Assembly (NCBI GenBank): GCA_965237785.1
Contig: OZ250159.1
Location: 2,232,695-2,296,694 of the forward strand
From: Candidatus Rariloculaceae bacterium
Lineage (GTDB): Bacteria > Pseudomonadota > Gammaproteobacteria > Steroidobacterales > Rariloculaceae
Direction: 5' to 3'
Length of the DNA: 64,000 nucleotides
This document shows positions 1,867 through 44,669 of this stretch, one piece after another. Within the stretch, counting starts at the first letter, position 1, and each line of letters starts with the position of its first letter. The notes beneath the pieces were generated by a model. The model was not told the origin of the DNA. It ran no database searches and saw nothing but the letters and a program-made list of their open reading frames with translations. Position numbers and translations under genes: made by a program.

Positions 1867-1887
1867 TACATGGAATACGCAGCATCC
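1867..1887 (+). mobile_element. Terminal tip of IS21 right IR plus target duplication GCATCC
   Basis: gaatacgca is the reverse complement of the IS21 left tip tgcgtattc at 42616; followed by gcatcc, which also precedes 42616. Confidence 0.85.
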
Positions 1888-2015
1888 TGAATTGCGACGT
1901 GCAGATCCCAAAAGGAGTAGCTGCCAGGCACCTCGATTTCACGCCAGATAGGGGGTGCAATGTTGCGCAGCTCGACCCGAAACCGAAAAACAGACCTTTT
2001 GCCGGATATTTCCAC
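1882..2015 (-). pseudogene. pRiA4b ORF-3 family gene, 5' fragment
   Basis: MEISGKRSVFRFRVELRNIAPPIWREIEVPGSYSFWDLHVAIQDA joins in frame to MGWQDYHLH at 42609. Confidence 0.85.
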
Positions 2016-2135
2016 TGCTCTTCGCTAGCTATTATTCTTTTAGAATCAGTATATTATGATTTTCGCACCAAGTCTAACAGGAGATTGATCGATGGGGTTC
2101 ATTGAACTATACTATGGTTCATTGGGTCATAGCTA

Positions 2136-2484
2136 ATGCAGACACTGGTTGCAATCGGCACCTTCGAAGAGAAGGCGCGGAAACTGCTTGGCAAGCCTGG
2201 CTTTGACGACATGTTGGAGTTTCTGGCCAGGCGCCCCAAAAGCCGGGAGAATTATCCAGGATACTGGAGGATTGCGAAAGGTCCGCTTCGCGCGGCCGGG
2301 AAAAGGCAAGAGTGGAGGAACGCGTGTCATCTATTACTACCACAACGACACCAAACCGATTCTCTTGCTGCTGATTTACGCGAAAGCCGATCAGGACAAT
2401 TTGACGGATGCGCAAAAAGCGCAACTCAGGAGACATGTCGAGGCCATTATCGACGAGTTTGGCCAGGAGACGAACGATGGACGA
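2136..2484 (+). pseudogene. RelE/HigB-type toxin, frameshifted
   Basis: MQTLVAIGTFEEKARK...ARRPK, then a shift near 2240 to AGRIIQDTGGLRKVRF..GKGKSGGTRVIYY; 3' end approximate. Confidence 0.75.
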
Positions 2485-2770
2485 CAAGCTTTTCAGAGAA
2501 CTCGATGCCAATCTGAAAGAAGCGGTCAAGGTCGCCAAGGGCACCAAGGCACCGAAGTCCGTCTATGTCGTCTTGAAACCGGCCGAGATCAAGGCCATTC
2601 GCACCAGCGTCGGCATGTCACAATCTGTATTCGCAAACACGTTTCGCCTCAGTCTCGATACCTTGAAAGGTTGGGAACAAGGCAAGCGCAAACCCGATGC
2701 GGCCGCCGCGAATTTTCTTCGCATGATCGAGGCAGATCCGGACTTCGTCAGGCGGACGCTGGCAGCCTAA
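2477..2770 (+). CDS. HigA-type HTH antitoxin
   Basis: EIKAIRTSVGMSQSVFA...TLKGWEQGKRKP; downstream of the toxin. Confidence 0.85.
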   Translation: MDDKLFRELDANLKEAVKVAKGTKAPKSVYVVLKPAEIKAIRTSVGMSQSVFANTFRLSLDTLKGWEQGKRKPDAAAANFLRMIEADPDFVRRTLAA

Positions 2771-2959
2771 CCCGCACAACAGAGTCTCAGGCGTACCCGG
2801 GGTAGTTCATTTCTGTCGGGGGATAATGGAGTTCTCATTGAACGAGCATTTGTCGAATGCGGCATTTCGAATTGAACGGGACCTCGAAATCGTAACTTCG
2901 AAAGCTACGATTTCGTTACGCTGAAAAGAAAAAGGGCCTACAGAAAACTGTAAACCCTT

Positions 2960-4279
2960 GATGACCTTCCCGAGAGAAGGGTAACACTCCATTCCGAAGA
3001 CATAGGTGACACTTTCTCCCTTTTGGGAGAGAGATCGTGCCCTGGAAGGAGTGCAACATCGTGGAAGAACGTCTGAAATTCATCTATCGCCTGCTCGATA
3101 GCGAGAAGATGGCGCCCTTGTGCCGCGAGTTCGGTATCTCCCGAAAAACCGGCTACAAAATCTACAGCCGCTACAAAGATCATGGCGTCAAAGCCCTGAC
3201 CGATCGCTCGCGACGACCGTATCGGCACGCCAACCGGCTGCCGATGGTCATCGAAAAGCGCATCGTCAGCCTGAAGAAAGAGTATCCCCACTGGGGTGCG
3301 CCGAAGATCCGTGATTGCCTCAGGCGCCGATACCCGGAGCTCGTCTGTCCCGCCATCAGCACCGTGCACGCCGTACTGGATCGCAATGGCCTGGTCCGGC
3401 GACGTCGACGACGACGTCATAAAGCCAAGGGCACCGCGCTCGACCATGTCAGAAAGCCCAACCAGCTCTGGTGTGCCGACTACAAGGGCGAGTTCATGCT
3501 CGCAGACCGCCGCTACTGTTACCCACTGACCATCACGGATTACGCCAGTCGCTACCTCATCACCTGTGATGCCCTGGGCACCACCAAGGAAGCCTATGCC
3601 TTCAGCGTCTTTGAGCGCGCCTTCAGGGACTACGGTCTGCCCAGGACCATCCGCACCGACAACGGCGTACCCTTCGCCAGCGGCAATGCCCTGTACGGCC
3701 TCTCCAAGCTCTCCGTGTGGTGGCTGCGCCTCGGCATCAACATCGAGCGCATCAAGCCCGGCCATCCCGAACAGAACGGCCGCCATGAGCGCATGCACCT
3801 GACGCTCAAGATCGAGGCCACCAAACTCGCCGCCGAGAACTTCCTGCAGCAACAGGCCCGCTTCGATGACTTCGTCGACTGCTTCAACCACGAACGGCCG
3901 CATCAGGCCCTCGATATGAAGGTCCCCGCCGACCTCTATGAAGAATCGCCCAGACCCTATAAGGGCCTGGGCGAGCTCGAGTATCCGTTCCATGACCGCA
4001 GCGCCATCGTCACGTCCTGCGGCCGGATCTGCTTCAACCGGCAGAAAATCAACCTCTCAACCGTCTTTGCCGGCCAGAAGGTCGGTATCAAACAGGTCGC
4101 CGATAAGATCTGGCTCGTCAGCTTCATGCAGTATGATCTGGGCTATTTTGACCACCAGACCTGCCGACTCGAGCCCATCGACAACCCGTTCAAAGCAAAA
4201 GTGTTACCTATGTCTCCGGTATGAAAGTGTTACCTATGTCTCCGATATAAACTGTCACCTATGTCCTCGGAACGGACCT
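2960..4279 (+). mobile_element. IS481-family element (ends approximate)
   Basis: Transposase flanked by inverted repeated motifs gacataggtgacac (left) and three gtg/ttacctatgtc-like copies (4198-4270). Confidence 0.8.
3037..4224 (+). CDS. IS481-family transposase
   Basis: MPWKE, LCREFGISRKTGYK, WCADYKG, IRTDNG, QNGRHERMHLTLK. Confidence 0.93.
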   Translation: MPWKECNIVEERLKFIYRLLDSEKMAPLCREFGISRKTGYKIYSRYKDHGVKALTDRSRRPYRHANRLPMVIEKRIVSLKKEYPHWGAPKIRDCLRRRYPELVCPAISTVHAVLDRNGLVRRRRRRRHKAKGTALDHVRKPNQLWCADYKGEFMLADRRYCYPLTITDYASRYLITCDALGTTKEAYAFSVFERAFRDYGLPRTIRTDNGVPFASGNALYGLSKLSVWWLRLGINIERIKPGHPEQNGRHERMHLTLKIEATKLAAENFLQQQARFDDFVDCFNHERPHQALDMKVPADLYEESPRPYKGLGELEYPFHDRSAIVTSCGRICFNRQKINLSTVFAGQKVGIKQVADKIWLVSFMQYDLGYFDHQTCRLEPIDNPFKAKVLPMSPV

Positions 4280-4288
4280 TGATCGGAA

Positions 4289-4333
4289 TGGCGCGCCCGG
4301 CAGGATTCGAACCTGCGACCGCCTAGTTCGTAG
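4289..4333 (-). other. 3' fragment of tRNA-Arg(ACG), att-like site
   Basis: Minus strand reads CTACGAACTAGGCGGTCGCAGGTTCGAATCCTGCCGGGCGCGCCA; the 5' half is absent; IHF-like aaatcagtaagtta nearby. Confidence 0.85.
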
Positions 4334-5008: not shown

Positions 5009-5180
5009 GAGCAGTCCATGCAATCTTTGCTGCGCCGCTGAAACGGCTGCGCCGGTGGCAAACACTTGTCGGCGAAGGGACAATACTACGGGCATTGAGC
5101 CGGAAATCGGGGCATTGTCCTGACCGGGCAATCAAGGTCACGATACGTGAGTATCGCGGCGACAGGATCTGACGATTTTC

Positions 5181-7307
5181 ATGCAAGCATCAAACTCCCG
5201 CGGGTCAACGCGCCCGTTTTTTATCTGGCTGGTCCTGTTCGAGTTGTCCTGGTGCGCATGCGTCTACACCGGAGACCATTGGGACACGGTAGTGACCCAC
5301 TGGCCAATCGCACTGGCGATGGCGCTTGGCTCCTACTTCGCCGGTTCGACGCCAATGGGCGGCGGCACGATCGGTTTTCCGGTGCTGGTGCTGCTGTTCG
5401 ACCAGCCCGCATCGCTCGGCCGCAACTTCGGGCTCGCCGTCCAGTCCATCGGCATGGTATCGGCCAGCATCTTCATCCTGTGCGCGCGCCGGCCGCTAAA
5501 CTGGCACCTGTTAAAGCCCGCTATCGCCGGAGCGCTCGTTGGCACGCCGCTCGGCGCCGCATTCATTGCGCCGCATGTGCCCGATCTCTGGATCAAACTG
5601 CTGTTCGCCGTCATCTGGGCCAGCTTCGGCGTAATGCATTACGTAAAAATACGGCCGATCGTCGCGGCGACCGGCAACGCCGCCGCATGGCCCGGCAAGG
5701 ATTTGCCGATCGGCGCGTCCATCGGCTTCTGCGGTGGCTTCGTGGCGTCGATGACCGGCGTCGGCATCGACATGATAATCTACGCCGTGCTCGTGCTGCT
5801 CTACCGCGCCGATCTCAAGATAGCGATTCCGACGTCGGTGGTGCTGATGGCATTTACATCCGTTATCGGCATCGTCTCGAACCTGCTGCTGGCTGCCGCG
5901 TTCCCGCAGTCCTACAACGTGGCACCGGCCGTGTTCGAAAACTGGCTGGCTGCCGCTCCAATCGTTGCCGTCGGCGCGCCATTCGGCGCCTTTGTCATCA
6001 GCCGGCTCCCGCGTACACCGACGTTGCTGATCGTATCCGCGCTGTGCCTGCTGCAGTTCGCGTGGACACTGGTCATGGAACAGGTAACCGGCTGGGAGCT
6101 GGCACTGGCGCTGGGCGGGGTACTGGCGATGAATATAGTTTTTCAGGCTCGTCAGCAAAATCTGTGGGTGAATTCAGGCTCGGGTAACGCGCCGAGGGCA
6201 TGGTACAAGGCGATTTCAGCACCGTGATAGGTCCGAAACCCGAAGGCTTTTCTGGAGGTCAGTTTTGCCTTGCCATTAAATCCCTCCACAACGCCGCTTG
6301 AGAGCTGACCTTTGGCCCGAAACCAATTGAGCAGAAGCTCGCGATGGTTACGTAGCATCCTGGCGACTTTCTTCATCGGCTCGATCTTCGATCGCATCGT
6401 CTTCGTGCACCATTGATCCAGGAAGCGTCCCGCCCAGTAGGGGGAAGCATAGCTCCAGAAGAACTGGAACTCCTCCTTCAGCAGATAGGCGCGGACGGAC
6501 CGGAGGTTGTATTGCAGGAGCTCGGCAAGGCGGATGTCCTGCTTGTCGGTGAGGTTCTCCGGTCGCTTCAGCAGCAGCCAGCGGCTCTTGGTCAACACCG
6601 GCTCGTAGCCCTTCGCCTTCAGCGCCTTCGATTCCTCAGCGCGAACTGCGTCCAGCGCCTTGCTGAAATGCATCATGATGTGAAAGCGGTCCAGCACGTG
6701 CACGGCTTGGCCAGCTTTCTTGGCGATCACTTTCAGGTACGGCTTCCACATGTCCGAGCACACGTACTTCAGCGCCGCGCTGCGCTCTCGGCCAAACCAG
6801 CGGAAAAAGCCCAGTAACGTCTTGATCTTGCGCTTGTTGCCGACCCACAGCAGGCGCTTGCAGTGCGCGTCGATCTGGTACACCAGCGTCAAGTACTTAT
6901 GCCCTCTCTGCCAGGCAATCTCGTCGATCCCGATGGCTTGGACCCCGGAGTAGTCCGCCTGCGCCCGACCCCATTCGACCGCGGCTCGATCTCCACCTCC
7001 AACGCCGGCTCACCCAAATGTTCTATCCATCGCACCGCCGTGTAGACAAAGGACTTGAACTTCTGCACCCGGTTCAGGATAGTCTTGAGTTGCATCTCGG
7101 CTTTGTTGTTCTGATTGATAAATGGCTTGCACCTTTATCTTCTCGGACTCGAGGCCGGGATGCCTCTCCAACCCCTTGCTTGCTTTCCAATCAGTTCTTC
7201 GCCGAATCTACCCTCGAACTACCCACAGATTCTGCGGAGGAGCCGTTTTTCATGCGGCGTACCGCTGCGGCGAACGCCGGCGCATGCGCCGCCAGCACAA
7301 TTCATAA
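5181..7307 (+). CDS. TauE/SafE sulfite exporter family protein, last codons displaced by ISL3
   Basis: GSYFAGSTPMGGGTIGFP and many TM segments; removing the IS gives NIVFHAAYRCGERRRMRRQHNS*. Confidence 0.75.
6146..7244 (-). mobile_element. ISL3-family element with internal deletion, 8-bp TSD GTTTTTCA
   Basis: IRs ggctcgtcagcaaaatctgtgggt / ggctcctccgcagaatctgtgggt; IGIDE, CSDMW, LDRFH, VEGFNGKAK. Confidence 0.93.
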
Positions 7308-7356: not shown

Positions 7357-8655
7357 TCAGCCGACCCAGAACGAGAAGTAAAGGTACAGGGCAGCGACCA
7401 GCCCCAGCACAACCGCGGTGGCGGCGACATCCCGGCGATCCCAGCTGGCGCGCACCGCGGCACGGTCAATCGAGTCATAGGTCAGGCCGCGAATGCGCTC
7501 ACGATCCGGCGCGGCGTCGGTCCGCGAGGCCACGACGATGGTGACAACGCAGATCAGGAACAGGACACCGGAGAAATACAGGAAATTGAAGTCGCCGATC
7601 GCCGCAAGCAACGCGGGCGACTCGATCTTGCCTTCGCCAAACAGGGCCTGTATGACGAGCTTGCTCATGCCGAGCACGAAGCCGAGACCGAGTCCCCACA
7701 CCGCGCCGCGAGTGTTGATGCGGCTCGAGAACAGGCCCAGCAGGAACACTGCAGTGATCGGCGGCGCAAGATACCCCTGCACGTTCTGCAGGTACTGGTA
7801 CAGACCTCCCTCCGATATCAGTGGCATTATCGGAATCCAGGCGAGACCTTGAGAAACGCGCCGAACAGGGCGCCGCGCCGGGCCGTCTTCAAGTCCCTGG
7901 CGGCCAACGTACGCTGCACGATGTACTGGTCCGTGCACCAGTACCAGATGCCAACGATGGGCGATGCAATCAGGATCCCCAGCCAGGGAAAGTCCGGGTC
8001 GGACAATGGCCGCCACAGTGCGTACTGCGCGACATTCTGGCTGGTGAACTCCCGCAACTCACCCCAGCCGCCGAGCCGGTCGAGTCCGAACCAGGTCACT
8101 GCCACCGAGCCGATGATAAGGATCACGGGCCTGTACCGAGTCCGTGTAGAGCACGGCGCGCAGGCCGCCCGCGACGGTGTACAGACCCGTCAGCACGACG
8201 GTTGCGATCGCGCCAACCCAGAACGCATTCTGCGGCGAGCCGAACGTGTCCGGCAGCAGCGTACTGAATACCACCGCGCCGGCGTAGACGGTCACCGACA
8301 CCTTGGTCAGCACATAGGCCGCAAGCGATACCAGCGACAGCATCCAGCGCGGCTTCGGGCCGAAGCGCCGCTCGAGGAACTCGGGCATCGTAAAAACTTT
8401 CGACTCGTAGTAGAACGGCACGAAGATCCAGGCGAGCAGCACGACGATCCACGCATGCAGTTCGTAATGCGCCATGGCAAGCCCGGTCGACGCGCCCTGC
8501 CCCGCCAGGCCAACGACATGCTCCGAACCGATGTTCGAGGCAAAAATCGACGCGCCAATCGCAAAGAACCCGACATTCCGGCCAGCGAGAAAATAATCAG
8601 TTGTGTTTTGCTGCTTGCGCGTTACCGCGATTACAACGATCAGCAGTACAAGAAA
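7357..8655 (-). pseudogene. Sodium:solute symporter (SSS), 5'-truncated, two frameshifts
   Basis: DYFLAGR, ASNIGSEHVVGLAG, MPEFLERRF, WYWCTDQYIVQRTL; frame breaks near 8126 and 7850. Confidence 0.88.
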
Positions 8656-9192
8656 AAAGGTGCAAGCCATTTATCAATCAGAACAACAAAGCCGAGATGC
8701 AACTCAAGACTATCCTGAACCGGGTGCAGAAGTTCAAGTCCTTTGTCTACACGGCGGTGCGATGGATAGAACATTTGGGTGAGCCGGCGTTGGAGGTGGA
8801 GATCGAGACGGCGGTCGAATGGGGTCGGGCGCAGGCGGACTACTCCGGGGTCCAAGCCATCGGGATCGACGAGATTGCCTGGCAGAGAGGGCATAAGTAC
8901 TTGACGCTGGTGTACCAGATCGACGCGCACTGCAAGCGCCTGCTGTGGGTCGGCAACAAGCGCAAGATCAAGACGTTGCTGGGCTTTTTCCGCTGGTTTG
9001 GCCGAGAGCGCAGCGCGGCGCTGAAGTACGTGTGCTCGGACATGTGGAAGCCGTACCTGAAAGTGATCGCCAAGAAAGCTGGCCAAGCCGTGCACGTGCT
9101 GGACCGCTTTCACATCATGATGCATTTCAGCAAGGCGCTGGACGCAGTTCGCGCTGAGGAATCGAAGGCGCTGAAGGCGAAGGGCTACGAGC
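8656..9192 (+). mobile_element. ISL3 fragment (no left IR, in-frame internal deletion)
   Basis: Near-identical to the 6146-7244 copy, in opposite orientation. Confidence 0.9.
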
Positions 9193-10407
9193 GGGGGTGT
9201 AAAAGGAACTGTGTAACTGGTTATTCTGAGAGAGTGACAGAAGGAGGGAATGATGGCCAGTTTGAAGGACAAACGAAGCGAGCTACTGGATGATCTGCTA
9301 AAGGATTATGACGGCGATCCGAAGGCAATTCTTGGCGAAGGCGGATTGCTGAAGGATTTGACGAAGTCGCTGGTGGAGCGCGCGCTGGAAGGCGAGATGA
9401 CGGCGCATGTGGGTTATGCACCGCATGCTGACGAGGGCCGCGGCAGCGGCAACTCGCGCAACGGCACGAGCGGCAAAACGCTTCAGAGTGAAGCCGGGCA
9501 ATTCGAGGTGGCGGTACCGCGGGACCGCAACGGCACCTTCGAGCCGCAGCTGGTGAGAAAGCGACAGCGGCGCCTGCAGGGACTGGAAACGTCACCGATG
9601 CGGTGCTCGAGGAGGTGCGTGCCTGGCAGGCGCGGCCGCTATCGGCGCTGTACCCGATCGTGTATTTCGATGCGCTGTTCGTCAAATCGCGCCAGGACGG
9701 CTCAGTGAAGAACAAGGCAGTATATCTGGCCCTGGGGATCAATCTGGAGGGCGAGAAAGAACTGCTGGGGCTGTGGATTGCGGAGACTGAGGGCGCGAAG
9801 TTCTGGCTGAACGTGTTCAACGAGCTCAAGAACCGCGGCATGCACGATTGCCTGATTGCCTGCATGGACGGGCTGAAGGGCTTGCCGGAGGCGGTGGAGA
9901 GTGTCTTCCCGCAGACGCGGGTGCAGCTGTGTATCGTGCACAAGGTGCGCCAGTCGCTGAAGTACGTGATCTGGAAGGATCGTAAGGCGGCGGCCAAGGA
10001 CCTGCGGGCCATTTATGCGGCTGCCACGCTTGAGGAAGCGGCATCGGCGCTGGACCGCTTCGAGGCCAGCTGGGGTGACAAATATCCGGCGATCGGGCCA
10101 AGCTGGCGCGCCGACTGGGACCGTCTGACCGCGCTGTTCGACTTTCCGCCGGCGATCCGCAAAGTTATTTATACCACCAATGCGATTGAATCGCTGAACT
10201 ACTCGCTGCGCAAGGTGCTAAAGAATCGCGGTGCGTTTCCGAACGACGAATCGATCCAGAAGATTTTGTATCTCGCCCTGCAGAACGCCTCGAAGAAATG
10301 GAACCGGCCGATTCGCGATTGGAAGGCAGCGCTCAATCAATTCGTCATTTTATTCGAAGATCGGGTGCCAGTCTGAAATGCAGTTACACAGTTTGCTTGA
10401 CACGCCC
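9193..10407 (+). mobile_element. IS256-family element, transposase with internal deletion and frameshift
   Basis: IRs gggggtgtaaaaggaactgtgtaactg / gggcgtgtcaagcaaactgtgtaactg; NSRNG, VPRDR, DGLKGL, QLCIVH, TTNAIES. Confidence 0.9.
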
Positions 10408-30207: not shown

Positions 30208-31209
30208 TCACAAAGCCTCCAGGAATGTCATCAGCTGATCATCGGGCCGGTAGATGCCCTCGGGAATATCGACCGGTCGCGTCCGGTCCATCGCGTCTTT
30301 CTTTATCTGCATGTCGGCATGCAGGTAGATTTGCGTGGTTTCAACCGTTTCATGACCAAGCCACAGTGCGATGACGGTGCAGCCGACGCCGCTGCGGAGC
30401 AGTTCCATGGCGGCCGAGTGGCGCAGCGTATGCGGACTGACCCGCTTGCTCTTCAATGTCGGGCAGGTCCCGGATGCCATCCGGGCGTATTTGCGCACAA
30501 TGCGCTCGATTCCGTCGCGACTGAAGCGTCCCCGGCGGGTACTCACGAACAGCGGCCGGTCCGGCGCTGCGGCCGTTTCGCCCAGCCAGCCGCGCAGCGC
30601 CTGCACACTGTCGGCGCGCAACGGCGTCGCCCGCTCCTTGCGGCCCTTTCCCCGGCAATGCACGTGTGCTTGGGACTGGGGCTCAAGGACCACGTCGCCA
30701 ACATTGAGACCGATCGGTTCCGACACCCTGAGACCGGTCTGCAGGGCAACCAGCAACAGGGTTCTGTCTCGCCGCCCGATCCATGTGGACAGGTCGGGTG
30801 CGGCGAGCAGTGCGGCGCACTCTCCCCGGTCGAGGTAGTCGATCATGCGTTTGTCATGGCGCTTCGCCGGTATGGTGAGCACCTGCTGGCAGTGATACAG
30901 CAGGGCGGGTTCGCGGACCGCGACGAACCGGAAGAACGCCCGGATCGTCGATCGGCGCGCGTTGCGCGTGCGGGGACTGTTCTGCCGGCTGTCTTCGATG
31001 AAGCACAGGAACCGCGCCACGAGATCGGCATCGATGTCGGTGACAAGCAGGTCGGTGGGCTCGCGCCCGACTTGTTCACAGGTGTAGTTGAGCAGCAGCC
31101 GGAAGGTGTCACGGTAGCTCGCCACCGTGTGAGGACTGGCCCCTTGCTGTGCGATGAGGCGATCGGCGAAGAAGCGCTGCACATAAGCAGGCAATGCATA
31201 CGTCGTCAT
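30208..31209 (-). CDS. RIT recombinase C
   Basis: SPHTVASYRDTF, TGLRVSE, GKGRKER, SPHTLRHS, WLGHE..TTQIY. Confidence 0.92.
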   Translation of the reverse strand: MTTYALPAYVQRFFADRLIAQQGASPHTVASYRDTFRLLLNYTCEQVGREPTDLLVTDIDADLVARFLCFIEDSRQNSPRTRNARRSTIRAFFRFVAVREPALLYHCQQVLTIPAKRHDKRMIDYLDRGECAALLAAPDLSTWIGRRDRTLLLVALQTGLRVSEPIGLNVGDVVLEPQSQAHVHCRGKGRKERATPLRADSVQALRGWLGETAAAPDRPLFVSTRRGRFSRDGIERIVRKYARMASGTCPTLKSKRVSPHTLRHSAAMELLRSGVGCTVIALWLGHETVETTQIYLHADMQIKKDAMDRTRPVDIPEGIYRPDDQLMTFLEAL

Positions 31210-32159
31210 GATGCCTCCTTTTGCGCGAATGACCGTTCCGCACGTTCGGTGGCCAGTTGCAGCAGTTCAGGCACCGCCTCCACGTACCAGTAGGTATTGC
31301 CCGGACGGCTGTGTCCGAGCCATGTGCTCAGCTTGTACATCTCCCGATCGGGGTTCAGCCCGGACCGGTACCAATCGATGAGGGTGCGGACCGCCATGGT
31401 GTGCCGCAGATCGTGCAGGCGCGGCCCCCGGCCGCGGTGGCCGGGCGGTTTGCGCTCCCGCAGGCCGATTCTCTGGCCGACCTTTGCAAAGTTGTATTCG
31501 GCTGTGCCGGTGCGGACGCGTTGAAGACGATCTCCGACGAAGAACGCCGGCGTCTCGACCGCGCCAAGGATCCGGTCACGCAATGACCGGTATTGCTCAA
31601 GGCGCCGACCGGTGCATGGGGTGAGAGCCAGCACACGGCTTCGGTCATTCTTCGCATGCCGGATATGCACCAGGGCGGCGTCCGTATCGACATCCCCATC
31701 GTCGAGCCCGAGCGCCTCGCCGATCCGAAGCCCCGTCACGGCAAGCAGGCCGAACAGCGTCGCATAGGTCGGGCCGCGCAGGCCGGGTTTTGACGGTAGC
31801 CGTGCGGCCTCGGTCACGATGGCGGCGATCTCGTTGTCGGTGTAGATGTAAGGCCGTGGCCGTCGCCGACCTGCTGGAATGAGGCCCCGGGGCGGCACTT
31901 CGGTCCGTGGATCGACGCTTTGCAGCCAACGGGCAAAGGTGCGCACATGGCTAAAGCGGTAGGACCAGCTTCGATTACTCGCTGAGCCGAACTGCGCTTT
32001 CCAGCATAGGAACAGGTCCGTGGTGACCCGTTCGGCGCCCTGGTCTGCCGCGAAGGAAGCAAACTTGCGTAATGCCTGCACAGCACTGGCCGACAGGCCT
32101 GTTCCGAAGCGGTCCCGCTGGGCGAGATACTGCTCCACGCGCTCTGTCAGCGGGATCAT
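31206..32159 (-). CDS. RIT recombinase B
   Basis: RPYIYT, TGLRIGEA, RLHDLRHT, LSTWLGH..TYWY. Confidence 0.92.
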   Translation of the reverse strand: MIPLTERVEQYLAQRDRFGTGLSASAVQALRKFASFAADQGAERVTTDLFLCWKAQFGSASNRSWSYRFSHVRTFARWLQSVDPRTEVPPRGLIPAGRRRPRPYIYTDNEIAAIVTEAARLPSKPGLRGPTYATLFGLLAVTGLRIGEALGLDDGDVDTDAALVHIRHAKNDRSRVLALTPCTGRRLEQYRSLRDRILGAVETPAFFVGDRLQRVRTGTAEYNFAKVGQRIGLRERKPPGHRGRGPRLHDLRHTMAVRTLIDWYRSGLNPDREMYKLSTWLGHSRPGNTYWYVEAVPELLQLATERAERSFAQKEAS

Positions 32160-33397
32160 CGCACCGCTCCCGGCACCGGCCATGACCGCGCAAGCGGTCG
32201 CAGTGCATCGATATCGTAGTGGGCGTATACGGCGGTCGATTGGCGGGAGCGGTGACGCAGGACATCGCCAATCTCTTCCAGGGAGGCGCCCCGGCCCAGC
32301 AGGTCCATGGCCAGACTGTGCCGCAGCGCATGGGTCCGGGCCTGGCCCCGGGGCGGAGTCAGGCCGGCCCGTTCGTACGCCTGGAGAAGGGCTCTGCGAA
32401 CGACCGGAGATGATGTGAACGGTCGATACGGCGGCCGCACGGATACAAACAAGTGACGCGACGAGCCCTGCCTGCCATTGCGGATCCAGGCGACCGCCGT
32501 CTCTCCCACATCGACGGGCAACGGCATGCGATCCAACTGGCCGGCTTTGCCGCGGACAACAAGCCTGCCGGCCCGCCAGTCGATGTCATCGAGCCGTACC
32601 GCGATCGCTTCCTGCCCACGAAGGCCGAGCCTGGCCATCATCAGCAGCATCGCACGATCGCGCCGTTCACGCGGGCTGTCGCCGCGAACCGCTTCGATCA
32701 GGTGACGCACCGTGTCGGGTTCGAGATGACGCGGCAGCCCATCGGGCCGGCTCCGTGCCGATCGTGGAACGGCGTCGGTCAGGTCGCGCGCGAGTCTGCC
32801 GTTCCAGAAGAGGAACCGCAGGACGTTGCGCAGATACGGCAGTCGCCAGTTGGACTTTCCCGAGAAGCCATCTACAAAAGCGAAGATGCTTTCCGGCGTA
32901 ATGCCTCTCGGATCGTCCAGCGCCCGGGTGCTCGCACCGCAGAACGTCATGAAGCTCTTCAGAATGCTCCGGTGCGTGCGCAGCCGTCTTCCGAACATCC
33001 CACGATGCTGCCGCAGCCAGGCATCGAACTGCGCACTCAACTGTTCCAGCGAGCCCGATGCAGGTGGCGGCGCGGGAAGCATCGGTGCGATCGCGCCGGA
33101 ATCGACCAGGTAGTCGGCAAACCGTCGTGTGACCGATATCAAATCCCGCTCCATCGAAGGCGATCCCGTTCGCGGACATGCTGCCGAGAGATCCGCAAGT
33201 ACGCCTGCATCGACATCGTCGGCCGCGAGTCCGCGGGCATCGAGCGCCGCACAGAGCCGGCCGGTCATGAGCCGGTAGGTGGCCAGGGTACGCTCGGCAT
33301 AGCCTTGTCCGACAAGACAGTTCAGAAACGCGCTGCGATGCGGCGCCCACCAAGAGGAATCCATCGATGCCGATGGAGGCGATATACAACTGGACAT
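32156..33397 (-). CDS. RIT recombinase A
   Basis: RDRAMLLMMARLGLR, IDWRAG, HALRHSLA, DVLRHRS..STAVYA. Confidence 0.92.
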   Translation of the reverse strand: MSSCISPPSASMDSSWWAPHRSAFLNCLVGQGYAERTLATYRLMTGRLCAALDARGLAADDVDAGVLADLSAACPRTGSPSMERDLISVTRRFADYLVDSGAIAPMLPAPPPASGSLEQLSAQFDAWLRQHRGMFGRRLRTHRSILKSFMTFCGASTRALDDPRGITPESIFAFVDGFSGKSNWRLPYLRNVLRFLFWNGRLARDLTDAVPRSARSRPDGLPRHLEPDTVRHLIEAVRGDSPRERRDRAMLLMMARLGLRGQEAIAVRLDDIDWRAGRLVVRGKAGQLDRMPLPVDVGETAVAWIRNGRQGSSRHLFVSVRPPYRPFTSSPVVRRALLQAYERAGLTPPRGQARTHALRHSLAMDLLGRGASLEEIGDVLRHRSRQSTAVYAHYDIDALRPLARSWPVPGAVR

Positions 33398-33834
33398 GGT
33401 TCATCCCTTTCGTGTGAAAACGAAAGAAATGTATGCCAGAACGCGTACAACTTAGAATCCCGTGATTATGCCGACAAATCCTGCCACATGACCCGGTCGA
33501 TCAATGAGTTGGGCCGCGTTGTCGGCATAAAACGGATGTCGGCATGTGCCGCGCTATGCCGATATCGGCATAGTGCGGCCGAACGCGCGCTCAGAGGACC
33601 GGCGATCGGAAGACGGCTGTCCTTCGGGTCCGACAGCGAGACCGGCGCGCGCTTCACGGCGCGGATGTATTCGATCGTCGCCACCCTCGCGTTAAACGGC
33701 ATCGATGTCCGGCACTGGCTTCGGGCGTGGCTGGACGCGTGTGCGGCCAACGGCGGGCGGGCGCCGCCGGATCTGTCCGCATGGCTGCCCTGGTCGATGA
33801 ACGAGGCGCGCAAGCGCACCCTCATGACGCCGCA

Positions 33835-37698: not shown

Positions 37699-37713
37699 AA
37701 GGCGGGACGTAAA

Positions 37714-38838
37714 GTGAATATTGCAATTGTAGGTTTAGGATTTGGAGCTGAGTTCATTCCGATTTATCAAAAGCACCCTCATGCGAATATGTATGCAATC
37801 TGCCAGCGTTCGGAATCGGATCTTAATAAAGTAGGAGATGCTTTCAACTTCGATCCAGGTCATCGTTTTCGCTCGTATCAAAAGCTTCTGGAAGATCCAA
37901 AGATTGATGCTGTGCATATAAATACACCCATTCAGCTCCATGCGGAACACTCGCTAATGGCTCTGCGTGCGGGCAAGCATGTTTCATGTACTGTGCCGAT
38001 GGCAACAAGTGTTGAGGATTGCAAGGAAATTGTAGAAACGGTCGCGGAGACGGGATTAAAATATACAATGGCGGAGACGGTTGTGTACAGCCGCGAATAT
38101 CTGTTTGTAAAAGAGCTTTACGAAAAAGGGGAATTGGGAAAAATTCAATATTTGCAAGCCAGTCATCCCCAGGATATGGAGGGATGGCCCGACTATTGGC
38201 AGCATATGAAACCCATGCACTACGCAACTCATGTTGTCAGCCCCGTTCTTGGACTTACTGACAAAGAAGCAGAATATGTATCGTGTTTCGGTTCGGGAAC
38301 AATCAGCGATGACCTTATCGAAAAGTCAGGTTCTCCCTTTGCGGTTGAAACATGCCATATTAAGTTAAAGAACTCTGACTTGACCGCTCACATTTATCGT
38401 TCATTGTTTGATACGTCACGTCAATATCGAGAAAGCTTTGATGTTTACGGATCTAAAAAGTCCTTTGAATGGCCGCTCATTGAAGGGGAGGATCCGGTTC
38501 TTCATACGGCAAAAAAACCCGAACCGGAGATACCCGAACGTATTAAGGTACCGGATTATGGACATCTGTTACCGGAAGAGATACGCGAGTTTACCTTGGA
38601 AGGAGTGTATGATGCAGATGAGCATGCTCACTTATCCTTTATCCAGGGAGCTGGCCACGGAGGTTCTCACCCACACTTAGTACATGAGTTTGTCGACTCT
38701 ATTGTTAACGATCGTGATCCTTACCCCAATGCGGTCCAATCTGCAAACTGGACATGTGTTGGCTTGCTGGCCCATGAGTCAGCTATGGAAGGTGGAGTCA
38801 TTAAACGACTACCCGACTTCACGTTATCAGTAACATAG
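37714..38838 (+). CDS. Gfo/Idh/MocA family oxidoreductase; AT-rich
   Basis: VNIAIVGLGFG, IDAVHINTP..H, AGKHV, GHGGSHPHL; original start possibly clipped. Confidence 0.88.
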   Translation: MNIAIVGLGFGAEFIPIYQKHPHANMYAICQRSESDLNKVGDAFNFDPGHRFRSYQKLLEDPKIDAVHINTPIQLHAEHSLMALRAGKHVSCTVPMATSVEDCKEIVETVAETGLKYTMAETVVYSREYLFVKELYEKGELGKIQYLQASHPQDMEGWPDYWQHMKPMHYATHVVSPVLGLTDKEAEYVSCFGSGTISDDLIEKSGSPFAVETCHIKLKNSDLTAHIYRSLFDTSRQYRESFDVYGSKKSFEWPLIEGEDPVLHTAKKPEPEIPERIKVPDYGHLLPEEIREFTLEGVYDADEHAHLSFIQGAGHGGSHPHLVHEFVDSIVNDRDPYPNAVQSANWTCVGLLAHESAMEGGVIKRLPDFTLSVT

Positions 38839-38890
38839 GAAAATAAATTTACCTGTTATTCAAATATAAACGGAACGAGGCCACGAACTG

Positions 38891-41152
38891 ATGCAAAAGC
38901 AACTCTATTTATTCTCTCCCCTGACCTTCCTTTTTGTCCTGATAGCATTCGGCTGGGTGGATAATGATACATCGGCCCAAACAAGTACCGCTGTTCAAAA
39001 AAGCAGACTGAATAATTTCGTTGATTGGGCTACTTATCGTGGCGATCAGGAAGGAACTGGATACTCTTCTCTAAGCCAAATTACAATCGAAAATGTTCAG
39101 TTATTAGAAGAAGTGTGGACCTATGATACAAGGAATCTTGTCCGGCCGGGGATGTCATCTAACCCGATTGTTATTGAAGGTGTGATGTATTTTTCTGATC
39201 CTGAATTGAATCTTGTTGCCCTGGATGCAGCAACCGGAGAAGAACTCTGGCTGTTTGATCTGTCTGAACACCATTCCAGAGGAGATTATCTCGCCAGTGG
39301 TATTATGAGAGGGGCGGTGTATTGGGAAGATGAGAATGGCAACAACTCAAGAATCTTCCATCTTACGAAAGATCTTGTCTGGGCAATTAACCCGGACGAC
39401 GGCACCCTTATAGAGTCGTTTGGTATCGGCGGGTATATTGATTTAAAGGAAAATCATGTTTGGCCTGCTCACCTGCTGGAAAATAAAATAACGAACACCT
39501 CACCTCCTGTAATCTATGATGACCATTTGATTTTGGATTCAAATGTTTCGGAAGGAAGAGAAGAACCCCCTGGTAACATCAGATCTTTTAACACGATAAC
39601 CGGGGAGTTTGAATGGAGATTTCAAACCATTCCTATAGAAGGACAGCCCGGGTATGAGACGTGGGAGTGGGAAGATAATATGGTTTATGGTGGCGCCAAC
39701 TCATGGGGTGGATTTACTGTTGATGAAGAAAGAGGCTGGGTATTTGCCGCCACGGGTTCAGCCACTGGTGGAATCCATGGAGGTGGTGGTGCGAGACCTG
39801 GCAAGAACCTCTTTTCGAATTCCGTTTTAGCCATTGATGCAGAGACTGGAGAATTACAATGGCATTTTCAAACGATTCACCACGATATTTGGGATTATGA
39901 TATCGCTCCTGCACCGATGTTAGCTACTATTACGCAGGATGGCGAAGAAAGAGATGTGGTCGTTCAAACAGGGAAACAGGGTAAAGTATTTGTATTTGAT
40001 CGAGATACCGGAGAATCTCTATTTCCCATTGTAGAAAAACCGGTACCGACAGAGGCGGCACTCGGTGAAGTTGCTTATCCAACTCAACCATGGCCTTTAA
40101 AACCTGACCCACTTGTAAGAACGTCATTTTATGAGTCTGATTTAACCACTATCACACCCGAGTCTCATGAGTCTGCACTGGAGCAATATAAAAGACTGAG
40201 ACCCGGACCGATGTATACACCTCCAAGTATAGAAGGAACGATCGTACAGCCCGGAATTCACGGAGGAAATGAATGGGGCGGTCCAGCGTTTGATCCGGAG
40301 ACCAATATTGCCTACGTAAACGTAAATGACTTCCCATTTATACTAACGCTGGACATCATACATCCTGATCAATTCGCAGATATGACGGAGACGGCCCAAG
40401 GGAGAACAATATATCTTGCAGCATGTGCGGCTTGTCATGGTGCTGATCGACAAGGAGGGGTAGCTGTTGCTCTTGATAATACAACGCTCAGTTCTGACGA
40501 ACTAAGAGATGTCATTACACAAGGCGTAAATGCGATGCCGGCCTTTCCGGCCTTTGACGAAGATGAATTGGATAATGTTGTAGCCTTTCTTCAAAGTGAA
40601 CCTGGTGAAGCAAGATCCACATCTGATATCGATTTAAGTGACGAAAATTTGACGTGGAGTGGAGGAGAGGGCGAATTGAGTTGGTCCACATCAACCCCAC
40701 AGTATGTACCTCAGTTAGAATATTTCACAGACCATATGGGGTATCATGCAATTAAACCACCATGGGGGAAACTCGTTGCGGTAGATGTTGCAAAAGGTGA
40801 AATTAAATGGTCGGTCCCACTCGGAGAATATCCCGGATTAGTAGAAATGGGGATTCGACATACCGGTGCTGAAAACTTTGGCGGAATGGCTGTTACACAA
40901 GGAGGTTTGATTTTTATAGCAGCAACAGAAGATAACCGGTTCAGAGCATTTGATAAAACCAGCGGCGTGCTTTTGTGGGAATTTGAGATGGATTCGCCTG
41001 GCTTTTCGACTCCCTCCACTTACGAAATTGATGGAAGACAATATGTTGTGATTGTAGCAGGCGGCGGCGGCGGTCGTTATCGTTCGCCTGTAACACAGGA
41101 TATTGGAAGGAGGGTTCATGCATTTGCTCTGCCAGGATCGGAAGTTCAATAA
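38891..41152 (+). CDS. PQQ-dependent (glucose/quinate-type) dehydrogenase with inserted cytochrome c domain
   Basis: W..Y.GD..G..YS.L.QI, WHFQTIHHDIWDYD, GG.EWGG, CAACHG, PPWG.L.A.D, TPSTY..DGRQY. Confidence 0.88.
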   Translation: MQKQLYLFSPLTFLFVLIAFGWVDNDTSAQTSTAVQKSRLNNFVDWATYRGDQEGTGYSSLSQITIENVQLLEEVWTYDTRNLVRPGMSSNPIVIEGVMYFSDPELNLVALDAATGEELWLFDLSEHHSRGDYLASGIMRGAVYWEDENGNNSRIFHLTKDLVWAINPDDGTLIESFGIGGYIDLKENHVWPAHLLENKITNTSPPVIYDDHLILDSNVSEGREEPPGNIRSFNTITGEFEWRFQTIPIEGQPGYETWEWEDNMVYGGANSWGGFTVDEERGWVFAATGSATGGIHGGGGARPGKNLFSNSVLAIDAETGELQWHFQTIHHDIWDYDIAPAPMLATITQDGEERDVVVQTGKQGKVFVFDRDTGESLFPIVEKPVPTEAALGEVAYPTQPWPLKPDPLVRTSFYESDLTTITPESHESALEQYKRLRPGPMYTPPSIEGTIVQPGIHGGNEWGGPAFDPETNIAYVNVNDFPFILTLDIIHPDQFADMTETAQGRTIYLAACAACHGADRQGGVAVALDNTTLSSDELRDVITQGVNAMPAFPAFDEDELDNVVAFLQSEPGEARSTSDIDLSDENLTWSGGEGELSWSTSTPQYVPQLEYFTDHMGYHAIKPPWGKLVAVDVAKGEIKWSVPLGEYPGLVEMGIRHTGAENFGGMAVTQGGLIFIAATEDNRFRAFDKTSGVLLWEFEMDSPGFSTPSTYEIDGRQYVVIVAGGGGGRYRSPVTQDIGRRVHAFALPGSEVQ

Positions 41153-41176
41153 AGTAAGCGGGATGCTTAAATATTG

Positions 41177-41736
41177 GGCTCCTCCGCAGAATCTGTGGGT
41201 ATTTCGAGGGTAGATTCGGCGAAGAACTGACTGGAAAGCAAGCAAGGCGTTGGAGGTGGAGATCGAGCCGCGGGCGAATGGGCGAGCACTGTGCTCGGGC
41301 TGTGAGTTGCCGCGGCCGGGTTATCACAAGCTTGCCGTACGTCGCTTTGAGTTTGTGCCGCTGTGGGGGATGAAGGTGTTTTTCGTCTATGCGCCGCGGC
41401 GGGTGGACTGCTCGAGCTGCGGCGTGCGGGTGGAGCGGCTGCCGTGGGCCTCGGGCAAGCACCGTTTGACAGATGCTTATGCCTGGTTTCTGGCGCGTTG
41501 GGCGAGGCGGCTGAGCTGGAAGGAAGTGGCACAGGTATTCGCGAGCTTCTGCTCAATTGGTTTCGGGCCAAAGGTCAGCTCTCAAGCGGCGTTGTGGAGG
41601 GATTTAATGGCAAGGCAAAACTGACCTCCAGAAAAGCCTTCGGGTTTCGGACCTGTCACGGTGCTGAAATCGCCTTGTACCATGCCCTCGCGCGTTACCC
41701 GAGCCTGAATTCACCCACAGATTTTGCTGACGAGCC
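41177..41736 (+). mobile_element. ISL3 element with internal deletions, both IRs, no TSD
   Basis: ggctcctccgcagaatc...gctgacgagcc; retains the CxxC segment missing from the other copies. Confidence 0.9.
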
Positions 41737-41882
41737 AGGTTTTCTTCACGGTTTATCTCTTGCTTTTCGAGAAACTCTCAATAATCGTCGGTGCCAACCA
41801 GTAGCTCCTCGGAATTCCGGGATTCGAAGAATCACGGGAAGCCCGATATCAAGATGCTCTCATAAAGTGGCGACTTCATTTT

Positions 41883-42020
41883 TGGCGCGCGACGTGCAGG
41901 ATGCACAAGTGCCGCGAAGGCCATGGATGGCCGGGAGCGGCCCCGGAGAGATACCTTCTCCCTGCAGTCGGAGCGTCGCTTCGCGCCGAAGGCGAACTCC
42001 CGACCGCCTGGTTCGTAGCC
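41883..42020 (-). other. 3' fragment of tRNA-Arg(ACG) interrupted by two short insertions, att-like site
   Basis: Minus strand reads GGCTACGAACCAGGCGGTCGGGAGTTCG [40 bp] ATCTCTCCGG [52 bp] GCGCGCCA. Confidence 0.75.
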
Positions 42021-42131
42021 GGGAAGAGTGCTTTAACTTACTGAAAAATATCGCCTTTATGACGACGCCCGTTGACCAACTATCAGTACGCTGCACAACA
42101 ATGCACATCTTGTGTCGGAAATTTGTCGGAA

Positions 42132-42615
42132 CTAAGCATTCTTGAAGGCCCGGTTCCAACGATCCTGTGGGTCGTCAAACTTGACCTTTGTCGGATCGAA
42201 TTTCTCTGAGTCAAATGATCCGCCAATCCAGCGCTTTATTTCATCGTGCTGATCGTGACCTGGATCTGCCAATGCCTCTAACATCGTCTGATAACCCCAA
42301 GGGCCGCCACAATCTTCAGGAGGACAGGCTCGCTCCCCACCGACGCAGACAACAGGTCTTTCAGAATCGCAGGAGATGATGTCAGCCAGGACGACATCGT
42401 GAATCCAATCGTCCCCGAAATCGTACACGTAGGTCATTCTGTCACCGACCTGTTGGAAGTGCTTCGTTACCGGCACTTGCCAACTCGCAATCGTCTCCCC
42501 GCTGCCGACTGGTTCATCATCGATAGGAATTCCTATCTCCCAACGACCGTCGTCGTCGCCATCGTCAACTGGAAGAAACATATGTAGATGGTAATCCTGC
42601 CATCCCATGGCATCC
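42132..42615 (-). pseudogene. pRiA4b ORF-3 family gene, 3' fragment
   Basis: QDAMGWQDYHLH.F, YVYDFGDDW.H, GERACPPEDCGG..GY. Confidence 0.9.
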
Positions 42616-42711
42616 TGCGTATTCTGAGGGAAAGTTGCCACCCGTTCTAAGGCAAAGTTGCCACCTGTTCTAAAGCAAAGTTGCCACCCGTTCTAAGGCA
42701 AAGTTGCCACC

Positions 42712-43763
42712 CTGAGGCGGAGGTCTTTGTCGCGGCGCTGGGTGCGTCCAACTACACCTATGCCGAGGCGACCTGGACGCAGGGCCTGAGCGACTGGATC
42801 GGTTCGCATGTGCGCACCATGGAGTACCTCGGCGTGGCGCCCGAAATCGTGGTGCCGGACAACCTGAAGGCCGGCGTCACCAAGGCGCACCGCTACGAGC
42901 CCAAGCTCAACCGCACCTACCAGGAATGGGGCGAGCACTACGGGGTTGCAATCTTGCCTGCCAGGCCGAGAAAGCCGAAGGACAAGGCGAAGGCCGAGAC
43001 GGGCGTGCAAGTGGTTCAGCGGTGGATCCTGGCGCGGTTGCGTCACCGCCAGTTCTTCTCCCTGGCCGAACTCAACGAAGCCATCGCGGAGTTGCTCGAG
43101 CAGCTCAATACGCGCCCGTTCCAGAAACTGCCCGGGTGCCGGCGGGAGCTGTTCGAGACGCTGGACCGCCCGGCGATGAGGCCGTTGCCGGCGCAGCCGT
43201 ACGAGTACGCGGAATGGAAGAAGGTGCGGGTCAACATCGACTACCACGTGGAGGTCGACCGCCACTACTACTCGGCGCCCTATCAGTTGATCAAGGAACA
43301 GCTCGATGCGCGCATCACCGCGAACACCGTAGAGTTGCTTCACCAGGGCCGGCGGGTGGCCAGCCATGCCCGCAGCTGGCGCCGCGCCGGCCACACCACG
43401 GTGCCCGAGCACATGCCGGAGAGCCACCGGGAACAGGCCAAATGGACGCCGGAACGGTTGATCGGTTGGGCAGGCAAGACAGGCCCATGCACTGCGGCCG
43501 TGGTCGAGCACATCCTGGCCACGCGCAAGTATCCGCAGCAGGGCTTCCGCACCTGCCTCGGGATCATCCGCCTGGGCGATCGTTACGGGCAATCGCGGCT
43601 GGAGGCGGCCTGCAAGCGGGCGATCGCGCTCGGCGCCTACGCCTACAAGAACGTCGAGTCGATCCTGAAGAACAAGCTGGAAAACAAGCCCCTGCCGCCA
43701 TCAACCCCGGAACTGCCGGGCATTGACCATGAGAATCTCCGCGGCCCAGGCTACTTCCACTAA
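42712..43763 (+). pseudogene. istA: IstA transposase, 5'-truncated
   Basis: [41 protein letters not shown]. Confidence 0.9.
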
Positions 43764-43786
43764 CCCCAACCGAAGAGGAACTGAAA

Positions 43787-44550
43787 ATGTTGTATCACCC
43801 CACCGTCGAGAAACTCGCCGAGCTGCGCCTCATGGGCATGCACGCCGGGTTGCTGGAGCAGCAGGACATGACCGATATCGAGCGGCTGGGCTTCGATGAA
43901 CGGCTCGGGTTGCTGCTCGACCGGGAGGCCACCTTCCGCGCCGAGCGTCGGCTCCAGTACCGGATCCGCAACGCCCGGCTGCGCCAGCCCGCCGTCATCG
44001 AAGACCTGGACTATCGGCACCCCCGCGGACTGGACCAAGCCCTGATGAACCGGCTCATCACCGGGCAATGGATCAAGAAGAAGCTCAACTTGCTGATCAC
44101 GGGGCCGACCGGCGTGGGAAAAACCTGGATCGCCTGTGCCCTGGGCAACAAGGCCTGCCGCGACGGCTTCACCGTTCAGTACCGCCGTCTCTCGCGGCTG
44201 TTCGATGAACTCGGCTACGCCCACGGCGACGGCCGCTACCCGAAGATGATGAAGAAACTCGCCCGAACCGACGTCATCATCCTGGATGACTGGGGACTGA
44301 CCAAGCTCACCGCGCCTCAGCGCCGCGAACTGCTGGACATCCTCGAGGACCGTCACCGGCACCGCTCCACCGTGGTGACCAGCCAGCTGCCCGTGGAGCA
44401 CTGGCACAAGATGATCGGCGAACCGACCCACGCCGACGCCATCCTCGACCGGCTCGTGCAAACGCCTATCGCATCAACCTGAAAGGAGAATCCATGCGAA
44501 AACTCAACGCCACCAGGAACCCGAAAACCTCATCCAAGAACGGACTCTAG
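43787..44550 (+). pseudogene. istB: IstB ATPase, frameshift near the C-terminus
   Basis: GPTGVGKT, ILDDWG, TSQLP, DAILDRLV, then a shift to NAYRINLKGESMR. Confidence 0.9.
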
Positions 44551-44629
44551 GCGATCCGCGTCGCTGCGCTCCGAGGGGTGGCAACTTTGGCCTGGAATGG
44601 GTGGCAACTTTGCGCTGGAACAGGTGGCA

Positions 44630-44669
44630 ACTTTACATGTTATGTTGCCGGCAACATAACATGTAAAGT
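44630..44669. repeat. Perfect 40-bp palindrome containing RIT1 core motifs
   Basis: actt tacatg ttatgttgcc|ggcaacataa catgta aagt. Confidence 0.95.

Follow-up and report, generated by a model that had tools for sequence, protein, structure and literature searches.

RIT1 apart from its own end palindrome suggests fusion of a 42.8-kb circle with a genomic island through RIT core sites

How does an insertion sequence (IS) come to lie tens of kilobases away from the last nine bases of its own end? The question is raised by 64,000 nucleotides of contig OZ250159.1 (assembly GCA_965237785.1) from a Candidatus Rariloculaceae bacterium, called the window here. A damaged IS21 copy lies in its right part, and RIT1, a recombinase-in-trio (RIT) element, extends across its left edge. 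RITs were named in 2009 and are widespread; they were reportedly described by Van Houdt in 2009 and by Ricker in 2013. The answer that we favour is that a crossover at RIT core sites probably fused a 42.8-kb circle, made of a segment B and one IS21, with a genomic island at a second site resembling an IS21 end. Positions are those of the window. Positions to its left are given as p, the genome position minus 2232694 (p = 0 exists), and positions in the upstream locus L001 equal p + 12000.

The split IS21 and the gene that it interrupts comprise the following pieces.

42616-44639, + strand: defective IS21 with istA and istB remnants and multi-repeat ends, last 9 bp absent
1873-1881, + strand: detached 9-bp end GAATACGCA of the IS21 right inverted repeat
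42610-42615: left copy of the target duplication GCATCC
1882-1887: right copy of the target duplication GCATCC
1884-2009, - strand: N-terminal piece of a PRiA4_ORF3-like gene (PF07929 profile positions 2-36, E 3e-10)
42132-42615, - strand: C-terminal piece of the same gene (PF07929 positions 33-172, E 2.1e-42, reported on the frame 42132-42641)
1888-42609: segment B, the 40.7-kb body of the proposed former circle

At the left end of the IS21, GCATCC is followed by the inverted-repeat tip TGCGTATTC, which starts at 42616. The right end breaks off at TACATG (44634-44639), and the 9-bp terminus is absent. This terminus and the second GCATCC lie directly after the right arm of RIT1, in the order TACATG (1867-1872), GAATACGCA and GCATCC, exactly where an earlier note on this DNA, the original prediction, had placed them. 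The 21-mer TACATG-GAATACGCA-GCATCC occurs once in the window at up to 3 mismatches, and none of 100 shuffles gave any match. The terminal repeats number three per end with a spacing of 23 bp, those of the right end lying at 44565-44634. The ends TGCGTATTC and GAATACGCA are common to 58 pattern matches in other genomes, of which one, an intact IS21 relative (L028), has the TACATG spacer and terminates in ...CTT TACATG GAATACGCA. A second intact relative, a copy from the same genus (L194), terminates in the same way. These intact ends indicate that the IS21 of the window is short by exactly 9 bp and that TACATG is native to IS21.

The copy has the features of the IS21 family, namely an IstA transposase, an IstB helper, repeated subterminal motifs and the 6-bp GCATCC on both sides. 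Both genes are damaged, and the copy is doubly defective. The 5′ part of istA (42681-43763) is deleted directly behind the left repeats, and the gene matches positions 135-294 only of the NF033546 profile. The istB gene (43787-44482; PF01695, E 1.1e-63) has a frameshift near its 3′ end and is short of one C near 44460 relative to related copies in contigs of the sequencing runs. The halves of the PRiA4_ORF3-like gene lie at opposite ends of segment B, and when they were joined in silico with a single copy of the duplication, the frame was open throughout. Because the tip and duplication at 1873-1887 complete the IS21 and the gene halves stand at both ends of the segment, the segment 1873-44639 (42,767 bp) is a circular permutation opened within the IS21 right inverted repeat. 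IS21-mediated cointegration was ruled out because the break lies 9 bp inside the IS end and not at its terminus.

RIT1 lies on the other side of the detached tip, and its end palindrome lies on the other side of the IS21.

L001:10649-11845: ritA of RIT1, upstream of the window
L001:11842-12786, + strand: ritB of RIT1, its 3′ part being window 1-786 (PF00589, E 2.1e-17 for the whole gene and 1.3e-17 for the 3′ part)
779-1774, + strand: ritC of RIT1, 331 aa (PF00589, E 2.6e-28, and a SAM-like N domain)
1775-1864: right (ritC-side) arm of RIT1, with ATGTTGCGG repeats at 1787-1795 (+), 1839-1847 (-) and 1856-1864 (-)
44640-44659: 20-bp core of the RIT1 end palindrome, TTATGTTGCC followed by GGCAACATAA, two inverted binding-type elements

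The trio consists of three adjacent tyrosine-recombinase genes on the same strand, with overlaps of 4 bp (ritA/ritB) and 8 bp (ritB/ritC). Each gene matches PF00589 or is XerC/D-like; ritC is XerC/XerD-like, scoring under the family cut-offs. Plasmid loci annotated as three tyrosine recombinases are 67-69% identical to RIT1 in nucleotides over 63-73% of its length, and trios in two genomes of the same genus are 71% identical. Its RitA is 58% identical to RitA of G016 over 401 aa. Among same-genus, family and order relatives, 6 of 61 genomes match RIT1 (G000 included), the best other genome at 71%. The ATGTTGCGG-type element has 7 matches in the window against 1.81 expected, a number reached by none of 100 shuffles. 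The left and right arms of RIT1 align over about 100 bp with the common repeat pattern ATGTTGCGG-N8-TTATGTTGCGG...CCGCAACAT.

Is the palindrome at 44640 part of a RIT? The arm motif ATGTTGCGG-N-TTATGTTGCGG was found at at least 119 loci in many phyla. Two inward-facing arms were present at 15 loci, comprising 7 full RITs and 8 arm-only minis, and a palindrome was scored as present when a stem of at least 11 lay directly outside an arm. It stood at exactly one end in 12 of the 15 arm pairs and at both ends in none; the other three fell under the threshold and looked degenerate by eye. The palindrome has the form x′-TATGTTGC..GCAACATA-x, where x is a tip of a few bases common to both arms of the element. 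In complete RITs, it was on the ritA side in 5/7 and on the ritC side in 2/7, as assigned by the place and strand of RitA matches only, combined with RitC. The side even differs between two copies within one genome (L085 and L143). The canonical RIT of this family reads core - palindrome - core - ritA-side arm ... ritC-side arm - core. With a pair of inverted binding-type elements in its palindrome, a RIT that has integrated retains one complete site, made of a palindrome half, a core and an arm tip.

The palindrome at 44640, which the original prediction had assigned to RIT1, is thus a genuine component of RIT ends, and the break falls, as it had claimed, exactly between this palindrome and the arm that normally adjoins it. 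The 20 bp are followed by CATGTA at 44660-44665, and the perfect palindrome extends to 40 bp (44630-44669). The RIT1-type palindrome occurs once in the genome with no arm in contact. Of the three RIT1-type arms in the genome, namely the outer left one, the right one and an inner, partial duplicate, none touches a palindrome. The 20-mer of 44640-44659 is present in 14 metagenome contigs. By eye, it lies directly between a target and an arm of another RIT lineage in about 10 of them, two look unrelated, and two (L236 and L238) have a non-arm sequence on the inner side. It is present in one of 401 phylum genomes, the window's own. The palindrome of the RIT lineage of G016 was found at two places in one of five genomes, both canonical.

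Two side observations concern this family. In G011, adjacent RITs have different arms. The arm-only minis (L076, L077, L088, L090, L106, L107, L113 and L140) have arms 380-575 bp apart with no gene between them; minis of this kind carry a palindrome at one end and are MITE-like and non-autonomous in appearance.

The rearrangement has left four junctions, J1 to J4.

Left of the window: J1, flank A with the tip TGCGTATTC, then CATGTAAA, then the left-arm element
1865-1881: J2, right arm, core TTTACATG (1865-1872), IS21 tip
44632-44649: J3, IS21, core TTTACATG (44632-44639), palindrome
44650-44669: J4, palindrome, core CATGTAAA (44660-44667), flank C
44668-46044: flank C, unique DNA with a weakly arm-like start (CGGCAACAT at 44725-44733)

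The same 8-bp core, TTTACATG or CATGTAAA, stands at all four junctions. It is native in this IS21 end and is also the tip of RIT1. Taken together, J2 and J3 make up a canonical insertion of RIT1 in the IS21 right repeat. The repeat was thus split by the RIT, as had been predicted, and its two junctions now lie 42.8 kb apart, on the wrong sides. TACATG is present at both, as the original prediction said, but it is not a spacer borne by the RIT; being native to the IS21 end and the RIT tip, it is part of the shared 8-bp crossover core. The native IS21 right repeat resembles the arm tip (GGCAAC..TTTACATG versus CGCAACATTTTACATG). J1 is the reverse complement of J2 over 27 bp, and the homology ends exactly at the IS21 terminus. 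At J4, flank C stands where a canonical RIT has its arm. The two direct CATGTAAA cores have 46,495 bp between them.

The junction halves were reassembled into an IS21 right end, two RIT sites and one IS21-like site. Not a single base was gained or lost, a balance characteristic of reciprocal conservative recombination. RIT site I, the one used for insertion, runs right-arm tip - core - palindrome half; over 38 bp it is the exact reverse complement of site II, which runs palindrome half - core - left-arm tip. ATGTTGCSG elements stand on both sides of the core in both sites.

A false join made by the palindrome or the IS21 repeats is conceivable at such a place, since perfect palindromes break or mislead assemblers, and unitigs do begin inside this one. 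However, the genome is one contig of 4.39 Mb with a single copy each of RIT1, the IS21 and the two outer flanks, and the junctions have just 8 to 27 bp in common with one another. Contigs X21 and X22, from runs of a second study, cover 44635-45871 and bridge J4 without any difference. Logan contigs of four runs, compared over 38000-52000, had no joint or loose end at 44630-44670; these contigs are unitigs that break at the palindrome and are uninformative on circles or empty sites. We regard an assembly artefact as highly improbable.

The fusion that we favour would proceed by a conservative crossover of the RIT tyrosine-recombinase type at the core TTTACATG/CATGTAAA, joining the circle to the genomic island. 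In addition to the insertion into the IS21, a second crossover would take place between the remaining intact RIT site and the island site TGCGTATTC-CATGTAAA-GT, giving J1 and J4. It would put the RIT body and the palindrome at opposite ends of the inserted circle, and the product would read flank A / RIT body / rest of the circle / palindrome / flank C. The joints were presumably catalysed by the RIT1 recombinases. The original prediction had the circle join a new target at the inner site between palindrome and arm. The break does lie there, but the target is not arbitrary: the fourth reassembled substrate, TGCGTATTC-CATGTAAA-GT..., has 19 bp in common with the IS21 right end.

Two orders of events would give the identical sequence, and they are held to be about equally likely. 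A circle carrying IS21::RIT1 may have docked at the island site. Alternatively, a RIT1 already seated in the island, its palindrome next to the ritC-side arm, may have captured a circle with an intact IS21; this is possible because palindromes on the ritA side and on the ritC side are both found in nature. The earlier claim of whole-circle insertion by a RIT crossover is thus supported in its core but not in its direction, since capture by a resident RIT1 gives the same product.

The left end of RIT1 agreed with what had been predicted beforehand, namely that the ritA end lacks the palindrome. Upstream of the ritA-side arm, no palindrome, IS21 body or PRiA4 piece was found. A second copy of ORF3, IS21 and palindrome upstream of ritA, named in advance as a finding that would speak against the prediction, was looked for and is absent; no second copy of RIT1, IS21 or the palindrome was found in the 4.39-Mb genome. 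The upstream order is ...CATGCAGG TGCGTATTC CATGTAAA ATGTTGCGG..., with TGCGTATTC at p -1844..-1836. This is a third, solitary 9-bp IS21 tip in inverted orientation. The left junction TGCGTATTC-CATGTAAA-arm calls for another IS21 end, whole or vestigial. Since the tip stops exactly at the IS terminus, we take it to come from a second IS21 copy, the remainder of which would have formed a perfect palindrome of about 2 kb with the first IS21. Such a palindrome should be unstable, and one of its arms would then have been deleted. Inverted-dimer and panhandle fill-in models were discarded; under them, homology would run beyond the IS21 tip and through the duplication into segment B, which was not seen.

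A candidate parallel comes from the metagenome contig L236. Over positions 1-722, it has two diverged IS21 istA copies facing a palindrome from both sides, with no arm. One istA runs toward the palindrome for 64 nt, and the opposite istA matches transposase profile positions 1-194. L236 is a second candidate for a palindrome joined to a second IS21 target in place of an arm.

The left region of RIT1 is itself scrambled over -1838..-1340 (L001 10162-10660). The outer arm is followed by the first ~13 codons of ritA and a 148-bp internal piece of a 1669-bp IS, which has three full copies elsewhere in the genome. Then come a second partial left arm with a shortened spacer and an 11-bp tandem duplication that makes a new ATG, and ritA resumes at about codon 20. 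The first ~19 codons of ritA are thus cut off from the rest by the IS fragment and the second partial arm, leaving an ATG-started frame of 398 aa.

A second RIT lineage lies within segment B.

30126-33577, - strand: RIT2, a separate RIT lineage with ATGCCGAC repeats, inside a repeated IS
30124-30211 and 33462-33549: arms of RIT2
33550-33577: 28-bp end palindrome of RIT2, on the ritA side

RIT2 shows the mobility feature of RITs, with three copies in the genome and one empty site. The other copies lie at window-relative 1787959-1791410 and 2139576-2143024. The empty site is near window-relative -909556, where the uninterrupted host IS reads ...AATAATTTT/GCCGAACG..., the slash marking the joint. 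Occupied sites have one arm on the left, the other arm and the 28-bp palindrome on the right, and no target duplication. The palindrome adjoins one arm in 3/3 copies. One copy has GCG in place of TTT at the left joint, a 3-nt polymorphism, and in copy 3 the whole body is inverted while the palindrome is kept on the same flank. The RIT2 copies form a natural series for deciphering the insertion chemistry of RITs. RIT1 is single-copy and absent from the other genomes searched, so it offers no identical copies or empty sites as signs of mobility.

Repeats of this kind bring in a second explanation, homologous recombination. An IS21::RIT1 (or a RIT1 alone) on a circle would have recombined with another copy in the island within 3.7 kb of homology. 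Later RIT excision, or a deletion, would have removed one RIT, so that a single body and a solitary palindrome remained. The genome is indeed rich in recombining repeats, including the three RIT2 copies with rearranged flanks and large 99%-identical blocks, and J1-J4 would also arise if the palindromes lay on opposite sides of the two copies. Yet the scheme has more steps, and the second RIT1 copy that it needs has left no trace. It still requires site-specific removal of the extra copy by the RIT, precisely at the core, and it still requires a second IS21 end for the tip at J1. We consider homologous recombination unlikely.

A third explanation does without a free circle and derives the locus from inversions or transpositions within the chromosome, between inverted RIT core sites and IS21 ends. 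RIT2 copy 3 and the comparison of L085 with L143 show that inverted RIT cores invert DNA, or that insertion occurs in either sense, and the integrase pairs at the two ends of the island are inverted relative to each other. When the four possible single inversions were undone on paper, however, every ancestor kept three IS21 tips, and in each of them the IS21 stayed apart from the tip with its own duplication; none was simpler than the circle. Nor can inversion produce the direct-repeat cores that bound the 46.5-kb segment. Such a history seems rather unlikely to us.

Several points weigh against the fusion of a circle by RIT crossover. No genes for replication or transfer could be recognised in segment B, and it has 99.8%-identical blocks in common with the chromosome. 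RIT1, with the 5′ end of ritA disrupted, may be inactive now. The third IS21 tip demands an unobserved second IS21 end and a deletion, and past the core just the bases GT support IS21 sequence on the flank C side. RIT2 junctions have very little core homology to the target, along with the 3-nt polymorphism, so the exchange perhaps does not depend on homology in the textbook manner. On one side L236 has only 64 nt, and as a contig of short reads it could be a chimera. RIT1, the free circle, the empty island site and the outer flanks were found in no relative, plasmid record or metagenome contig searched, and neither the ancestral states nor the order of events were observed. RIT transposition has never been reproduced experimentally, according to passages of PMC10214605.

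Segment B contains a toxin-antitoxin-like pair, many IS fragments, sugar and PQQ-dehydrogenase genes, a TonB receptor, a Trp halogenase and RIT2. A 4.17-kb block of it with the PQQ dehydrogenase and adjoining genes (38305-42474) has a counterpart about 1.14 Mb away at 99.8% identity, and the identity ends 141 bp short of the IS21. Segment B looks like native DNA looped out rather than a foreign plasmid. Two further features were observed in it. The small gene pair at 2136-2770, beside the IS21 tip, is a likely toxin-antitoxin system whose second gene has an HTH/MqsA-antitoxin-like domain. Inverted repeats of 543-550 bp (99%) at 6595-7149 and 8645-9198 surround a 566-aa ORF without a Pfam match, possibly an unclassified mobile element.

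The island around the junctions has the following features on its right side.

44887-46044, - strand: DUF4238 gene in flank C
46630-48855, - strand: two P4-type integrase genes (the right-hand pair), of which one is cut short by a repeated element (46644-47025)
48996-49873, + strand: right copy of an 878-bp direct repeat, the left copy being at -5396..-4519

The island extends from p -4518 to 48995 (about 53.5 kb) and is bounded by the 878-bp direct repeats. These are 99.658% identical and contain a small gene and the 3′ end of a pilQ-like secretin gene with secretin domains. Tandem pairs of P4-type integrase genes stand at both ends of the island and face each other. The locus is uninterrupted in three genomes of the same genus (G001, G015 and G010), and G016 has an insertion of about 145 kb at the same position of the secretin gene.

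Flank C in relatives matched only an unrelated repeat and IS21 ends. For flank A, homology in relatives ended at the end of the integrase gene, and no empty site was found; a weak match in genome G051 was left out of all claims. The DUF4238 protein was present in 3 of 401 class genomes (G000 included), the other two being 58-59% identical and of no context value. The 17-mer of the RIT1 tip was found at 26 loci, with the arm motif behind the tip in 0/26, and the 26-mer of the RIT1 left arm in no metagenome contig. A pattern of arm plus IS21 tip matched at three loci (4 matches), apparently by chance in coding sequence that looked porin-like by eye. Alternatively, a decayed arm may stand at the start of flank C. 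CGGCAACAT lies 58 bp in and in the right orientation; the alignment is weak, its score being matched by 24/500 shuffles for the right arm and by 55/500 for the left arm, and it gives no more than a hint of such an origin.

Other RIT lineages were seen within the IS66 transposase gene or at one conserved place in istA of IS21, near positions 182-194 of the transposase profile. Such loci are L241, L244, L245, L246, L238 and L236 in metagenomes and L139, L091, L097, L125, L131 and L136 in genomes, and the same flank recurs across different species. RITs seem specialised for conserved sequences of other insertion sequences.

We put forward, as a tentative generalisation, that every integrated RIT may carry a live duplicate of its insertion site and that the core tips of each lineage may be tuned to conserved IS sequences. 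Here the target would be the IS21 right end; elsewhere it would be a single codon position in istA of IS21 or in the transposase gene of IS66. RITs might then be parasites of insertion sequences and portable docking sites at once. If this is true, RITs can fuse any two DNA molecules with the targeted IS, moving tens of kilobases per reciprocal crossover, a route of island and plasmid assembly not hitherto ascribed to them. The locus suggests that RITs may fuse replicons or capture large circles and act as island builders, not mere passengers. Together with the end structure seen across the family, it also offers a testable RIT model: crossover at an 8-bp core, a terminal palindrome flanked by two equivalent inverted sites, and targets inside other insertion sequences chosen by core matching. 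For an element of a known kind this would be new behaviour, and it rests on one locus, the family-wide anatomy and one candidate parallel.

How does RIT1 compare with known systems? RITs, treated among others in Van Houdt 2012 (PMC3414803), have three adjacent, overlapping tyrosine-recombinase genes, ritA-ritB-ritC, and long imperfect inverted-repeat arms; they often lie on islands or inside other mobile elements, with multiple identical copies per genome. RIT1 is like them in its three overlapping same-strand recombinase genes and its inverted-repeat arms. The literature passages treat RITs as putative self-mobile units of unexplained mechanism, with mobility inferred from copy distribution and with target specificity and movement untested. 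RIT1, in contrast, is split from its own palindrome by 46.5 kb, and its locus has a defined 8-bp core and a spare site that appears able to fuse whole molecules. Palindromic repeats at RIT ends are noted in passages of PMC5737581, where hairpin intermediates are suggested. A one-sided end palindrome acting as a duplicate recombination site and replicon fusion by RITs are not mentioned in the literature passages covered here. Priority for the RIT end structure is uncertain.

Tn554, SE and GInt also have several tyrosine recombinases together and no target duplication, and circular intermediates have been proposed for them, according to passages of PMC10214605. As described there, they can carry a few junction bases from the donor site, which may be compared with the 3-nt difference of the RIT2 copies. 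Unlike RITs, they lack both the long inverted arms and the terminal palindrome, and the sites that they use are specific ones in the chromosome. Those passages describe no cointegration through a retained internal site for them. The IS21 copy of the window is like its family in IstA, IstB, multi-repeat terminal inverted repeats and the 6-bp duplication. The circle was opened 9 bp inside the right repeat and not at the IS terminus, so IS21 was not the maker of these joints.

Fusion at secondary sites is known from lambda secondary att sites, Cre pseudo-lox sites, elements that exploit Xer/dif and the translocatable units of IS26. There, a single reciprocal crossover at a short core, which a look-alike target has in common with the circle, takes in the entire circle and leaves hybrid sites at both ends. 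The RIT1 locus resembles this product and differs in its parts. The enzymes would be those of a RIT trio, the donor site would be a built-in duplicate of the element's own insertion site, and the targets would be the ends of another mobile element, IS21.

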